From the IMG/VR virus record IMGVR_UViG_3300032050_000177, positions 1 through 54,624 of that record: DNA of 54,624 nt, one strand, 5' to 3'. The position numbers and the translations under genes are program-made. This DNA is from a virus (Duplodnaviria > Caudoviricetes). Below, one piece after another: positions 23,012 to 44,365 of the stretch (position 1 is its first letter; each line of letters opens with the position of its first letter). The notes beneath the pieces are model-generated. The model was given only the letters and a program-made list of their open reading frames with translations, made no database searches and was not told the origin of the DNA.

Positions 23012-23144
23012 ACCATAATAGTCCTAAATTAGCAAAAGCATATCCCATCCACATAACTCCATGAGGATGGTCTTTTTGATAAAAGCACGATAAACTAGTA
23101 ATGGCATATAAACATGTTGATATAATAACACAAGGAATAGCCAT
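22992..23144 (-). CDS. Small hydrophobic protein (50 aa)
   Basis: MAIPCVIISTCLYAITSLSCFYQKDHPHGVMWMGYAFANLGLLWYEFTKL; starts at guaC stop after AGGAG; below ORF-track cutoff. Confidence 0.55.
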   Translation of the reverse strand: MAIPCVIISTCLYAITSLSCFYQKDHPHGVMWMGYAFANLGLLWYEFTKL

Positions 23145-24265
23145 TATATACTCCTATCAAAATGTACTCTATTTACCTTTATGAATTCGGCACATCTTGG
23201 TAAGTCCTTAAGATTGTTGGCACCAGTATACGCACAGGCACTTCTTATTCCACCAAGTATATCCTCTATTATATTAGAGGCTTGACCCTTATAATCCACT
23301 GTTAATACCCTGCCCTCGCTAGCTCTATAATTTTTAATGCCACCATATTTGTGTTGAGCTTTATGTGAACTCATTCCATAGAATGTTAGAGATTTCTTTC
23401 TTTTAGCTGTTTCGCACCCCGGATCTAATGGTTGCCACCATTCTGAGTGAACTGTTCTATCATTATTGATTATTTGGCATAGATATTCATAATCCCACTC
23501 TCCTTCACACTCTTCTACTCCAGCCAGCATTCCGCCAAGCATAACAAAGTCTGCATTAGCCGCAAATGCCTTTACCACATCCGATGGAGTTCTGCACCCA
23601 CCATCAGCACATATCAAACCAAGTCTTTTATCCTCACTCTTTAAGCCGTGTGCTGCGTGTGAGCATTCTGCTATAGCTGATAATTGTGGATATCCAACGC
23701 CCGTTTTCAACCTAGTCGTGCAGGCTGAACCTGGGCCGATTCCTACCTTCACAATATCAACTCCACCATGAAGAATTAATTCTTGAACCATCTCTGGTGT
23801 GCATACATTGCCAGCCATTATAATTGGTTCGCTACCAAATAAATCTCTTACCTTTTGACAGAAGTTAACAAAGTTATCAGTATAACCATTAGCAACATCT
23901 ATACAAATATTAGGAATAAAATATTTACTAATAAATTGATCTAGTTTATTAATATCTGAATCTTGTATTCCCATACTATACCAACCATAATCAATATCGG
24001 TTGGGTCTAGTTGATAGTCTTCAATGTTATAATGTTTATGTAAACATGTAATGATATTAAATTCTCTTAACGCTTTCATCATTGATAATGTGCCAACAGA
24101 ATCCATGTTTGCAGCCATTATTGGTGTGCCAGACCACTTCCTAGAAGAGTGATAAAAAGAAAACTGCCGATTTACATCAACACAGACCCTTGAGGCGGCT
24201 CGGGATCGCTGTGGAACGAGTAAGACATCATCAAAGTCTAACTTAGTATCATTAATTATTTTCAT
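23144..24265 (-). CDS. guaC: GMP reductase
   Basis: 'KLDFDDVLLVP', 'PIMAANMD', 'CIDVANGY', 'KVGIGPGSACTTR..GVGYPQLSA', 'FYGMSS', 'YRASEG'; true start ATG 24265 (the ORF-track extension runs through the tRNA). Confidence 0.92.
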   Translation of the reverse strand: MKIINDTKLDFDDVLLVPQRSRAASRVCVDVNRQFSFYHSSRKWSGTPIMAANMDSVGTLSMMKALREFNIITCLHKHYNIEDYQLDPTDIDYGWYSMGIQDSDINKLDQFISKYFIPNICIDVANGYTDNFVNFCQKVRDLFGSEPIIMAGNVCTPEMVQELILHGGVDIVKVGIGPGSACTTRLKTGVGYPQLSAIAECSHAAHGLKSEDKRLGLICADGGCRTPSDVVKAFAANADFVMLGGMLAGVEECEGEWDYEYLCQIINNDRTVHSEWWQPLDPGCETAKRKKSLTFYGMSSHKAQHKYGGIKNYRASEGRVLTVDYKGQASNIIEDILGGIRSACAYTGANNLKDLPRCAEFIKVNRVHFDRSI

Positions 24266-24298
24266 ATTATCCTTTGCTATGTAACTATTAGTATCTAG

Positions 24299-24379
24299 TG
24301 GTAGGTGAAGGATTCGAACCTTCGAAGCCGAAACATCTGATTTACAGTCAGACCCCTTTGACCACTCGGGAAACCTACC
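24299..24379 (-). tRNA. tRNA-Tyr(GUA)
   Basis: GGTAGGT/ACCTACC acceptor, TCTGA-CTGTAAA-TCAGA anticodon arm, GGTTCGAATCC T arm; CCA not encoded. Confidence 0.93.
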
Positions 24380-24387
24380 TAAATGAG

Positions 24388-24417
24388 ATAACGGGACAGG
24401 TTGCCCCATCCCGTTAT
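24388..24417. terminator. Hairpin between rIIB-like gene and tRNA-Tyr (terminator or processing stem)
   Basis: ATAACGGGA...TCCCGTTAT 9-bp inverted repeat. Confidence 0.45.
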
Positions 24418-30712: not shown

Positions 30713-31062
30713 TGGTGGAGGCGGCGATCTTCGAAAATCGCGTCCAGTCTAGTTTCAATATAAACTTCTACATCCTTAGTTAATCGTTATCGCACAATTA
30801 ACAAAACTATCAGAGTTATCTGAGTCAGATTGAGTACAATCATCATATTCATTTATGTCTGGCGAATCTACCATATCCGATTATCGGAGTCAGCATGATT
30901 GGTCGATATGGTTCATGCTACCACACTCTTGCCTAACTAGGTCAGGCAGCGAGAGCGAAACGAGTTTCGCCAACTAACATTAAGCGACTTTTATACTGGC
31001 CGGTCGCTCAACCAGTGGATGCCATCTATACCTACGTCTATCTGTCGATACCTTTCGCCCCC
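30713..31062 (-). ncRNA. ssrA: tmRNA
   Basis: 5' GGGGGCGAAAGGTATCGAC; 3' GACGCGATTTTCGAAGATCGCCGCCTCCACCA; G3-U acceptor wobble; tag frame GETRFALAA* at 30971-30942. Confidence 0.95.
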
Positions 31063-42297: not shown

Positions 42298-42671
42298 ACA
42301 TATCCAGCTTTAGCTGCCTCTTCGTCGCATAGTGTTTGCATCCAAGCATTAACAAATTCCCCGTTTACTATCTTTTTTGTTCTTAGCTTGCCCCTTTTAC
42401 CAGTAACTTCGCACGTTATATAACTAATAGCTTCTAACGCACGAAAATATCCAAACAAATATTCATTATATGAGGTACAGTATATTCTAAGTCCACCAAA
42501 CTTCTCTTTAATCTGAACAAATTGATATTGTTTATGGTCTTGCTTAGACCTATGATCCATTTCTTCCGCTGCCATACGAATCAAATCATACCACCCATCT
42601 CCACATTCACAATATGTGAAATTCAGAGTGGGGAAATCTTTTTTTAGTTGATCCATTAATTCTTGTTTCAT
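42294..42671 (-). CDS. Hypothetical phage protein
   Basis: 'ECGDGW..LI...QIKEKFGGLR.Y...S..TCE..G'. Confidence 0.75.
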   Translation of the reverse strand: MKQELMDQLKKDFPTLNFTYCECGDGWYDLIRMAAEEMDHRSKQDHKQYQFVQIKEKFGGLRIYCTSYNEYLFGYFRALEAISYITCEVTGKRGKLRTKKIVNGEFVNAWMQTLCDEEAAKAGYV

Positions 42672-42686
42672 AATTATACCTTACAA

Positions 42687-42711
42687 TAGCCCCAAGAGGA
42701 ATCGAACCTAC
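42687..42711 (-). pseudogene. Isolated tRNA 3' fragment (T arm + acceptor strand)
   Basis: GTAGGTTCGATTCCTCTTGGGGCTA with no adjacent D or anticodon arm. Confidence 0.5.
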
Positions 42712-42749
42712 AGAAATGATAGTCTATTCCATTTTGTGTATATATTAAT

Positions 42750-42833
42750 ATCTCGTTGGGGAGTCGAACCCTAGTCATCCGTCCACCATGTTAATGACAT
42801 AGGCTTAGAAGGCCCACGGCGGCTACAACGAGA
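42750..42833 (-). tRNA. Non-canonical D-armless tRNA-like RNA, anticodon UCU (Arg)
   Basis: TCTCGTT/AACGAGA acceptor, TGGGC-CTTCTAA-GCCTA anticodon arm, long extra arm GTCATT/GATGAC, GGG-TTCGACT-CCC T arm; only ~10 nt where the D arm should be. Confidence 0.7.
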
Positions 42834-42861
42834 CTCGTTTAACTATTATAGAGGCTACTGC

Positions 42862-43380
42862 ATGAAAGTCAATTGCAAAAACTGTGAAAAAACATTCGAA
42901 AAAACAAAAGCAGAGATTATGAGAACTGAAAATAATTTTTGTAGTAGGAGTTGTGCGGCTAGTTTTAATAATAGAAATACAAAAAGAATAAAAATGAAAC
43001 CAATGGAAAAAACTGTCAAAAAATACTCTAAATGTAATCAGTGCGGTATTGATCTTAATTATAAAAAACGTAGAATGCTATGTGAAGAATGCAAGGACAC
43101 TTCTAAAGATCAAACATTGGCTCAGGTTGCTTATGATAAGCATCATAAATCGTCTTGTTGGGCATTAGTAAGATCAAGAGCAAGGGCTGTAATGAAAAAT
43201 AAAACACAAATTTGTACAAAGTGTGGGTACGATAAACATGTTGAAGTAGCACATATTAAACCAATACAAAGTTTTGAACTTTATACATTGGTATCGGAAG
43301 TAAATGATGAAAACAATTTAATTTTATTATGTCCAAATTGTCATTGGGAATATGATCACGGTCTTTTTACATTAGATTAA
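42862..43380 (+). CDS. HNH endonuclease with N-terminal Zn ribbons (probable mobile homing nuclease)
   Basis: 'CKNC..F...FCSRSC', 'CTKCGY...VEVAHI...NLILLCPNCH'; the only convincing plus-strand gene. Confidence 0.85.
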   Translation: MKVNCKNCEKTFEKTKAEIMRTENNFCSRSCAASFNNRNTKRIKMKPMEKTVKKYSKCNQCGIDLNYKKRRMLCEECKDTSKDQTLAQVAYDKHHKSSCWALVRSRARAVMKNKTQICTKCGYDKHVEVAHIKPIQSFELYTLVSEVNDENNLILLCPNCHWEYDHGLFTLD

Positions 43381-43382
43381 TA

Positions 43383-43700
43383 TCAAATATATTTATATTC
43401 TTTTATATCACCATTAGATACTATCTTGCTATCTTCATATTGTGAGGCTACTCGCCTATAAAACTCTTGCTTAATATTTTCTAGTACGCCAGTTATTATA
43501 GCAATCTTGGGATAAGAAACCTTGCCCATTAGACCAGCCGCTATTCTGCTAAAGCTATAGTTAATATCTCCACAAATCTCTAGCAGTTGATCGTTAGTAA
43601 GCTCTTTACCTTCTGCATCAATATTATGTTTAATACAGTTTATCATATCATCAATACAGTGATACAGGCTTGTTCGTCGTTCTTCTTTTATGTATGGCAT
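43383..43700 (-). CDS. Hypothetical phage protein
   Basis: 'MPYIK..RR...G.INY....Y.....GVLE..K.EFYRR....YED.KI..NGD'. Confidence 0.75.
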   Translation of the reverse strand: MPYIKEERRTSLYHCIDDMINCIKHNIDAEGKELTNDQLLEICGDINYSFSRIAAGLMGKVSYPKIAIITGVLENIKQEFYRRVASQYEDSKIVSNGDIKEYKYI

Positions 43701-43739
43701 AGTTTTTCCTTTGTAAACTTAAAACGTTTTGATATATAG

Positions 43740-43824
43740 TCTCACGGGCGGGATTCGAACCCGCAGTGTTTCTAATGTGGGGGATTTTAAGTCCCCTGTG
43801 TTTCGCCAATTTCACCACCGTGAG
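43740..43824 (-). tRNA. tRNA-Leu(UAA)
   Basis: CTCACGG/CCGTGAG acceptor, GGGGA-CTTAAAA-TCCCC anticodon arm, long variable arm, GCGGGTTCGAATCCCGC. Confidence 0.93.
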
Positions 43825-43860
43825 TGCGTTTACATATCATATCGCATTATAACAAATCTG

Positions 43861-44052
43861 TCATTTAACAAACTCTATTGTCCAATTATCCTTATTTACG
43901 ATCCACTTTTTCACAAGATCAGCATCAATATATTCTCCAACCCTTACATTTAGAGTATTTACAACTTTCTTTACCATAAAAACATTATCGTCACAAATAC
44001 TACTTGGTGGATCACAAAGAACTATCTTAACAGACTTACTTTTTTTAACCAT
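43861..44052 (-). CDS. Hypothetical protein
   Basis: ATG 44052 after AGGAGG. Confidence 0.6.
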   Translation of the reverse strand: MVKKSKSVKIVLCDPPSSICDDNVFMVKKVVNTLNVRVGEYIDADLVKKWIVNKDNWTIEFVK

Positions 44053-44062
44053 TTCAATCCTC

Positions 44063-44365
44063 CTAATTAGTGTCTTCATCATCAACAGTCTCAGTATACA
44101 TCGAACCATTGTGTTCGTCAAGTCGAAACAGTGCTGTAAATACAGACCAAAGCTTAGCATGTTTCATTTCATGTAGATTAACAATGCCTTGCAGAGTATT
44201 TACCAAATAATCTGGATCTTCACAAACATTTTCACCCTCAATAACATTCTCCATAATTGTATTCAGATTATCCACAATCTCCATCTGTTTCGTAATAGCA
44301 TCTTCAAGATCAAATCGACTTGGACAACCAAAATCAAAATCAATATTTTCATATTTGTTAGTCAT
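44063..44365 (-). CDS. Hypothetical protein
   Basis: 'RFDLE..I'; 100 aa. Confidence 0.65.
   Translation of the reverse strand: MTNKYENIDFDFGCPSRFDLEDAITKQMEIVDNLNTIMENVIEGENVCEDPDYLVNTLQGIVNLHEMKHAKLWSVFTALFRLDEHNGSMYTETVDDEDTN
44093..44121 (-). promoter_or_regulatory. sigma70-type promoter (intragenic)
   Basis: TTGACG-17-TATACT with CGAT. Confidence 0.6.

Follow-up and report, generated by a model that had tools for sequence, protein, structure and literature searches.

Does an 84-nt stretch of a phage genome that folds like a tRNA with anticodon UCU, but lacks a D hairpin, encode a working tRNA, and if so, how is the core of the molecule held together? We examined this in a linear viral contig of 54,624 nucleotides (the window; IMG/VR record IMGVR_UViG_3300032050_000177), which is an estimated 37% complete and has a G+C content of 30–45%. 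The window carries an rIIA gene, tail-protein genes and many small minus-strand ORFs, as in T4-like phages. A first-pass annotation, made from the sequence alone, had placed a D-armless tRNA-like RNA at 42750–42833, proposed that its D stub could pair with the loop of an enlarged extra arm, and suggested that it was either a functional AGA decoder or a decoy against anticodon nucleases.

ARAGORN called tRNA-Tyr(GUA), tRNA-Leu(UAA) and tRNA-Ile(UAU) in the window and Rfam added a tmRNA, but neither called a gene at this position. There was no match to the Rfam tRNA model RF00005 (cut-off 29 bits), either at the gathering score or at E-values up to 10, in the region 42400–44100. The only hit was to the tRNA-Sec model RF01852, at 27.3 bits against a cut-off of 47. 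When read by eye on the minus strand, however, the sequence folds as had been described, and the observation is therefore confirmed. The strand had not been stated, the gene is one base longer at each end, and only 8 nt, rather than about 10, lie between the acceptor and anticodon stems. The features of the locus are as follows, where tRNA position n corresponds to window coordinate 42835 − n.

42749..42834, minus strand: whole non-canonical tRNA(UCU) gene, 86 nt, with discriminator A at 42749 and no encoded CCA
42826..42834, minus strand: acceptor stem, 5′ strand (positions 1–9), pairing with 42750–42758
42750..42758, minus strand: acceptor stem, 3′ strand (positions 77–85)
42818..42822, minus strand: D stub CCGCC (positions 13–17), preceded by three linker bases and contiguous with the anticodon stem; read as the counterpart of the D-stem 3′ strand
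42799..42817, minus strand: anticodon arm (positions 18–36), with a 6-bp stem, loop CUUCUAA and anticodon UCU at 42807–42809
42774..42798, minus strand: enlarged extra (variable) arm of 25 nt (positions 37–61), with a stem of 37–41 with 57–61 closing a 15-nt loop, followed by two linker bases
42783..42787, minus strand: GGUGG (positions 48–52) in the extra-arm loop, partner of the stub; read as the counterpart of the D-stem 5′ strand
42778..42782, minus strand: ACGGA (positions 53–57), inferred counterpart of D-loop A14, G18, G19 and A20
42759..42771, minus strand: T arm (positions 64–76), with a 3-bp stem GGG/CCC and loop UUCGACU
42845..42872, minus strand: sigma-70-like promoter, TTGACT-16 nt-TATAAT, ending 11 nt before tRNA position 1
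42862..43380, plus strand: HNH endonuclease gene, head-to-head with the tRNA, its start codon 28 nt from tRNA position 1
42687..42734, minus strand: decayed relic of a canonical tRNA-Arg(UCU) gene

Pairing of the D stub with the extra-arm loop

In this one sequence, the complementarity between stub and loop is not beyond chance; a 5-bp antiparallel run between the 8-nt stub and the 15-nt loop appeared in 4629 of 20000 shuffles. The minimum-free-energy fold was also unremarkable (z = −0.99), although that method cannot model pseudoknots. A search for homologues, with covariation of CCGCC/GGUGG, had been specified in advance as the test of the proposed pairing. To carry this out, we built a single-sequence covariance model with the cloverleaf helices but without the stub/loop pairing. 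This model found nothing in 28 distant related loci, identified through the downstream ORF (about 43% identity), or in five complete genomes of that clade. An exact 21-mer scan of viral contigs also gave nothing, and the collection of named phages held no close relative of the locus. Among 47 closer related loci, the model found two homologues (in loci L037 and L042), and it found eight more in metagenome contigs retrieved with an anticodon-loop/T-arm pattern. A second model, built on the family, added homologues in loci L216, L186 and L288 and a more distant one in L213, giving fourteen homologues from viral and metagenome contigs. Both models match the window gene end to end (94.5 bits with the family model).

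The sequences were aligned with MAFFT and not fitted to the structure. The stub/loop helix was paired in 55/55 cells among the 11 sequences obtained with the model that lacked it, and in 75/75 cells among all 15 sequences, where four of the five pairs change on both sides. The pair types are CG14/UA1 at 14–51, GU5/AU4/UA3/CG2/GC1 at 15–50, AU5/GC4/CG3/GU3 at 16–49 and CG13/AU2 at 17–48. The acceptor stem was 100% paired in the 11 sequences and 98.5% in the 15, with seven of nine pairs covarying and G1·U85 invariant; the anticodon stem was 98.5% and 96.7% paired, with five of six pairs covarying and an invariant loop. The T stem is invariant in 15/15. The extra-arm stem was only 70.6% paired, with three covarying pairs, because one subgroup is shifted by a gap in the automatic alignment; by eye, each member has a complementary stem of 3–5 bp with a different sequence. 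For the whole structure, 94.1% of cells were paired in the 11 sequences and 93.9% in the 15, compared with 71.5% in shuffles (0/500 reached the observed value) and 37–47% when partners were slid. As the extra-arm stem crosses the stub/loop helix, the structure is a pseudoknot.

The test thus supports the interpretation put forward in the first-pass annotation as regards the structure, but ‘D-armless’ is a misnomer, since a D-stem is rebuilt from the stub and a strand in the extra arm. A decaying pseudogene with a chance complementarity might have been suspected from the failure of the tRNA finders, the shuffle result and the fold score. This is contradicted by the covariation counts, with fifteen diverged copies keeping every helix, and we regard it as highly improbable.

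The alignment also corrects the stem lengths. The acceptor stem is 9 bp, rather than 7, and the T stem 3 bp: pairs 8–78 (UA12, GC2, AU1) and 9–77 hold in 15/15 and 14/15 sequences, whereas the two extra T-stem pairs of a 7/5 reading hold in only 11/15 and 1/15. A 9/3 branch with a long extra arm is the hallmark of the Ser-charged (9/3) allo-tRNAs, which were found with tRNA-Sec models, have a longer anticodon stem and in some cases carry AGA/AGG anticodons (PMC5389517; PMC7590224). The window gene shares the 12-bp branch split 9/3, the 25-nt extra arm with its 5-bp stem, the 6-bp anticodon stem and a weak tRNA-Sec hit, and could in principle be charged with serine, placing Ser at AGA codons or acting as a regulator. 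However, the long D-stem with tetraloop, as in tRNA-Sec, that defines allo-tRNAs is absent, and this family has instead a stub/extra-arm pseudoknot and a phage context. The discriminator is A in 13/15 and G in 2/15 sequences, rather than consistently the G or U linked to Ser identity, and pair 3–83 is UA, CG, AU or GC but never the G:U of Ala identity (G3:U70), which, with Ser identity, is what allo-tRNAs carry. We therefore consider this reading very unlikely, although overlap with published 9/3 UCU sequences is not ruled out, their lists not having been compared.

Other systems differ in other respects. tRNA-Sec is the best Rfam match (homologues score 29–30 bits) and shares a long acceptor stem, a 6-bp anticodon stem and a long extra arm, but here the branch is 12 bp rather than 13 bp, there is no 6-bp D-stem and the anticodon is UCU rather than UCA. 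D-armless mitochondrial tRNAs, such as nematode mt-tRNA-Ser(UCU), also have a short connector between the acceptor and anticodon stems, described as replacing the D-arm and conferring flexibility, and are short (PMC7609411). In the window gene the connector is base-paired to an enlarged extra arm, the T arm has a normal loop and the molecule is longer than a normal tRNA. Compared with the canonical tRNA-Arg(UCU) genes of related phages (loci L029, L034 and others), it has the same anticodon loop, discriminator A, T-loop UUCGA, and a GGA that is read, by inference, as that of the D-loop G18 G19 A20. It likewise keeps an acceptor stem, a 7-nt anticodon loop with U33 and a purine at 37, and a T arm with a UUCRA loop. 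The canonical genes are 72–75 nt with a 7/5 branch, a D hairpin and a short variable loop, whereas here the D-stem 5′ strand and D-loop bases lie after the anticodon arm. The first-pass annotation had mentioned reports of D-armless bacterial or phage tRNA-like RNAs. Our full-text searches found no description of a D-stem rebuilt with the extra arm or of a D-loop placed after the anticodon arm, although they covered few subscription journals and so do not exclude an earlier one. The order of strands in the cloverleaf is among the most conserved features in biology, and known exceptions either lose arms (mitochondria) or shift base pairs between stems (tRNA-Sec, allo-tRNAs). Here the tertiary-contact nucleotides are kept but their order along the chain is changed, and covariation supports this in about a hundred natural sequences.

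A wider class with a 7/5 branch

The lower-scoring hits were 75–81-nt genes with an ordinary 7/5 branch, belonging to a class of about 76–80 nt that shows the same strand swap. Their parts run in the order: acceptor stem; U A; a 4–5-nt stub; one base; the anticodon arm; a short linker; three or four bases complementary to the stub; a motif that reads like a normal D-loop (U A A/G Y Y G G A); and a few bases before the T arm. In 27 such sequences the two central trans pairs hold in 27/27 each (CG17/GC5/UA5 and GC17/CG5/UA3/AU2) and a third holds in 17/27. U8, A9, A14, G18 and G19 are invariant, and A20 nearly so. By eye, without a count, the purine after A14 (R15) and the base just before the T stem read A/U in most rows and G/C in locus L086, as the R15–Y48 pair would. 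In some 80-nt members the stub could alternatively be paired with the UUGG of the D-loop-like motif, but this is broken in others, whereas the register just before the motif holds throughout.

As the stub runs straight into the anticodon stem, we read it as the D-stem 3′ strand (22–25), with the D-stem 5′ strand and the D-loop lying after the anticodon arm. The tertiary-contact nucleotides of a normal tRNA are all present, but two internal blocks have swapped order. Circular permutation of the gene was rejected, because circularization cannot undo such a swap. In this view, the 9/3 family is a derived version with a 5-bp trans helix, a shortened D-loop-like motif (A x G G A) and an added hairpin stem around it. 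G55, G56 and A57 are invariant in 15/15 sequences of the 9/3 family, but their assignment to G18, G19 and A20 is by analogy with the 7/5 class. That the chain can still form an L-shape is inferred from known tRNA geometry; no 3D model was made.

To examine the distribution of these genes, we applied a rule-based, anticodon-agnostic scan to loci retrieved by the same pattern from parts of three collections. At least one such gene was present in 37 of 117 metagenome loci, 40 of 120 viral loci and 6 of 120 prokaryote-genome loci. The 83 distinct sequences carry UCU (70), UCG (4), ACG (4), CCU (3) and Ile (2) anticodons, so that 81 are Arg; the two Ile members have GGU instead of GGA. The retrieval pattern required a UCU loop, which inflates the Arg bias, the other anticodons coming from the flanks, and true abundance was not measured. 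In the first 40 prokaryote-genome loci, which were read individually, most hits are ordinary tRNAs with the motif in the D-arm, or archaeal intron-bearing tRNA-Arg genes. ARAGORN missed every member it was run over, although many lie inside arrays of 12–30 tRNA genes, while 7/5 members pass RF00005 at 31–42 bits. BLAST found 7/5 members in isolated phages: unannotated in Agrobacterium phage Atu_ph04, Stenotrophomonas phage SOVA965 and Limnohabitans phage DC31, under a ‘hypothetical protein’ in Maribacter phage Panino, and annotated as tRNA-Ser in two Alishewanella phages, where CCA is encoded. No 9/3 member was found in that collection.

The near confinement to Arg anticodons and the larger share of viral than cellular loci raise the possibility that the rewired core exists to escape or soak up host nucleases that attack tRNA-Arg or the tRNA core, the RNA being either a nuclease-resistant decoder or a pure decoy not used in translation. 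Phage tRNAs have been proposed to be selected for insensitivity to host anticodon nucleases, including colicin D (PMC10264068), and a defence system that cuts the variable loop of tRNA-Tyr is reported (PMC13096335). However, the anticodon loop CUUCUAA is identical to that of most of the canonical phage tRNA-Arg(UCU) genes compared, and a loop-directed nuclease should still see it; no nuclease is identified. A pure decoy would also not need a conserved acceptor stem, discriminator and GGA motif, nor would it let the canonical gene decay. We consider a nuclease-related role unlikely, and the decoy suggested in the first-pass annotation is neither supported nor excluded.

Genomic context and the probable reading of AGA codons

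Of the 47 closer related loci, 17 hold a canonical tRNA-Arg(UCU), often directly after tRNA-Leu(UAA). L037 and L042 hold the odd gene there instead, and none of the 47 holds both. No canonical tRNA-Arg(UCU) was called in the window. RF00005 finds 2 and 4 tRNAs in the whole contigs of L037 and L042; the four inside those loci are the Leu, Ile and Gly genes called by ARAGORN, and the anticodons of the other two were not determined. Replacement is not obligatory, since L288 carries the odd gene and an intact canonical tRNA-Arg(UCU) 63 nt apart, and locus L117 carries a 7/5 member and a canonical gene.

In the window, a relic of the canonical gene lies 14 nt downstream of the odd gene. It runs from the D-loop onward, with a garbled and shortened anticodon arm, and its last 23 nt (42687–42709; T arm plus acceptor 3′ end) are identical to the canonical tRNA-Arg of L029. 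The local alignment to that gene scores 54, against a maximum of 31 in 500 shuffles. We had considered whether the T-arm-like stretch at about 42690–42710 was a second rewired tRNA, but it belongs to this relic. L037 shows the same relic further decayed. So one gene decays, which shows what decay looks like here, while the odd one keeps all its helices through compensatory change. An 11-nt match to positions 7–17 of a canonical tRNA-Arg just upstream of the odd gene was dismissed as a further relic, as 93 of 500 shuffles reached the 9-mer score and it overlaps the −10 box and leader of the promoter.

The Arg identity set is A20, C35, U/C36 and A/G73 (PMC9976931). C35 and U36 are present throughout, as UCU is invariant in the family, and position 73 is A or G. 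For A20, an invariant GGA follows the trans helix, but its spatial equivalence to A20 is inferred, which leaves this element undecided. AGA makes up 133 of 316 Arg codons in 20 long ORFs and is the commonest Arg codon. Window AGA sites align with R in 96 and K in 48 of 174 cells in relatives that carry a canonical tRNA-Arg; Ser is not among the six commonest residues. This comparison, which like the position of the gene speaks against the Ser-charged alternative, reflects gene history and host tRNAs as well as this tRNA. The promoter-like site matches the consensus at 11 of 12 positions, which is not proof of function, and the same layout is readable upstream of the homologues in loci L129, L131 and L288. 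The only metatranscriptome run holding part of the stretch has contigs over 42828–43003 and 43070–43100, which do not cover the tRNA body. Two further runs, whose label as RNA is a guess, hold a related contig that is similar only across 42749–42836, and there is no verdict on transcription.

Taken together, the gene is best read as a functional, AGA-decoding tRNA-Arg with a rewired D-arm, a reading in which we have fair confidence. The sequence family, all of the helices including the pseudoknot, the 9/3 split, the synteny and the relic were demonstrated by the analysis, and the RNA family and its pseudoknot are close to certain. The docking contacts of the fold, transcription, processing, Arg charging and use in translation are inferences; charging and use are likely, with only indirect support, and aminoacylation was not assayed. 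In this model, the 13–17/48–52 helix would stack on the anticodon stem where a D-stem normally sits, and the bases that follow would dock on the T-loop and offer A20 to arginyl-tRNA synthetase. The gene would be transcribed from its own promoter, trimmed, given CCA by the host, charged with Arg and used for AGA, having taken over from the canonical gene. If these molecules are charged and used, the tRNA core tolerates a different chain topology, which bears on tRNA evolution, on how RNase P, the CCA-adding enzyme, ArgRS, EF-Tu and the ribosome recognize tRNA, and on the design of orthogonal tRNAs. It would also follow that phage tRNA counts are underestimated or mislabelled.

The adjacent HNH endonuclease gene

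The plus-strand ORF beside the tRNA matches Pfam PF13391 (44.9 bits) and PF01844 (25.8 bits) and phrog_1271 (5.4e-14). Homologues with 35–69% identity lie in the same position and orientation in L037, L129, L131, L122 (cut by the contig end), L216 and L186, so that an HNH gene is head-to-head with the 9/3 tRNA, 15–28 nt away, in 7 of 15 family loci. Where called, the tRNA genes around it differ between these loci. The endonuclease domain is thus present and linked to the same neighbour across genomes, as in a free-standing homing endonuclease cassette. There is a precedent in T4 SegB, a homing endonuclease in a tRNA gene cluster that recognizes a site containing the conserved T-stem-loop motif of tRNA genes (PMC2330249). 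SegB, however, is GIY-YIG rather than HNH, and no link to a structurally altered tRNA is reported there.

This arrangement suggests, in addition to the main explanation rather than in place of it, that the tRNA is the immune, functional cargo of the HNH gene. The nuclease would cut the conserved canonical tRNA-Arg(UCU) gene of related phages, and repair would copy in the HNH gene together with the rewired tRNA-Arg, which lacks the target and keeps AGA decoding. The idea fits the facts but rests on adjacency alone, and we hold it only tentatively: eight of the 15 family members have no HNH gene nearby (though several of those contigs are short), endonuclease genes are common in phage tRNA regions in any case, no cleavage site is known, and neither cleavage nor immunity was measured. 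Equally tentative is the furthest-reaching possibility, that phages carry a previously undescribed structural class of tRNA, with the D-stem 5′ strand and D-loop moved to the far side of the anticodon arm and the L-shaped core tied by a pseudoknot, whose 9/3 version spreads as the cleavage-immune cargo of an endonuclease that destroys the canonical gene of rival phages. Should the tRNA prove to be charged and used, the link would offer a testable case of a mobile element that carries a replacement for the gene it may destroy. None of the seven loci with the HNH gene shows an intact canonical tRNA-Arg(UCU), although the loci are short and absence is weak evidence, and the window and L037 show its relic. 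In contrast, L288, which keeps both tRNA genes, has no HNH gene.

Sequences flanking the tRNA gene

Four stretches in or around the tRNA locus of the window were noted:

42687-42734, minus strand: pseudogene relic of the canonical tRNA-Arg(UCU)
about 42735-42741, minus strand: short motif, TATACAC
43383-43700, minus strand: small ORF between tRNA-Leu and the HNH gene
42500-43100: stretch whose DNA was also found in metagenome runs

The last 23 nt of the relic are still identical to the gene of relatives, and a more decayed copy is present at 13770-13820 of L037, one of the loci that carry a homologue of the 9/3 tRNA. The TATACAC motif recurs 10-60 nt downstream of the 9/3 tRNA in several otherwise different contigs, having been seen in the homologous loci L037, L129, L131, L122, L216 and L288 as well as in the window. 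Its meaning is not known, although a phage promoter or a processing signal is possible. The small ORF encodes a DUF6899 protein (72.9 bits). Homologues of this protein lie between tRNA-Leu and tRNA-Arg in the loci L039-L042 and L072, so this spot often holds inserts. The DNA of the 42500-43100 stretch is present in 17 DNA runs labelled freshwater, lake-water or ‘fungus’ metagenome, from 13 coded studies, some of which may be the source sample.

Rewired tRNAs in other phages and contigs

A 7/5 rewired tRNA with anticodon UCU is present in Alishewanella phage vB_AspM_Slicko01 (locus L321, positions 1485-1563; OQ508956.1, 17417-17495), where the record annotates it as tRNA-Ser. The same kind of gene is unannotated in Agrobacterium phage Atu_ph04 (MF403007.1, about 112.8 kb).

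In locus L149, three rewired-D tRNA-Arg genes (UCG, CCU and UCU) stand in tandem at 1650-1926 on the plus strand, inside a 16-gene tRNA array, and ARAGORN calls none of them. In locus L191, two rewired-D tRNAs with Ile anticodons (GAU and UAU) were found at 620-696 and 1223-1302 on the plus strand, both of which carry GGU in place of GGA. These are the only non-Arg members seen. ARAGORN calls the first of the two as tRNA-Ile, with an odd anticodon position.

Other RNA genes of the window

Two further regions of the window concern RNA genes:

30713-31062, minus strand: phage-encoded tmRNA
23144-24409, minus strand: longest ORF for a dehydrogenase-like protein, overlapping tRNA-Tyr at 24298-24379, minus strand

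The tmRNA was identified with Rfam (76.3 bits). ARAGORN did not call it in the window, but called tmRNAs with tags ending LALAA in many related contigs. For the dehydrogenase-like protein (phrog_9582), the match starts at residue 49 of the longest ORF, and the true start codon is probably further in.
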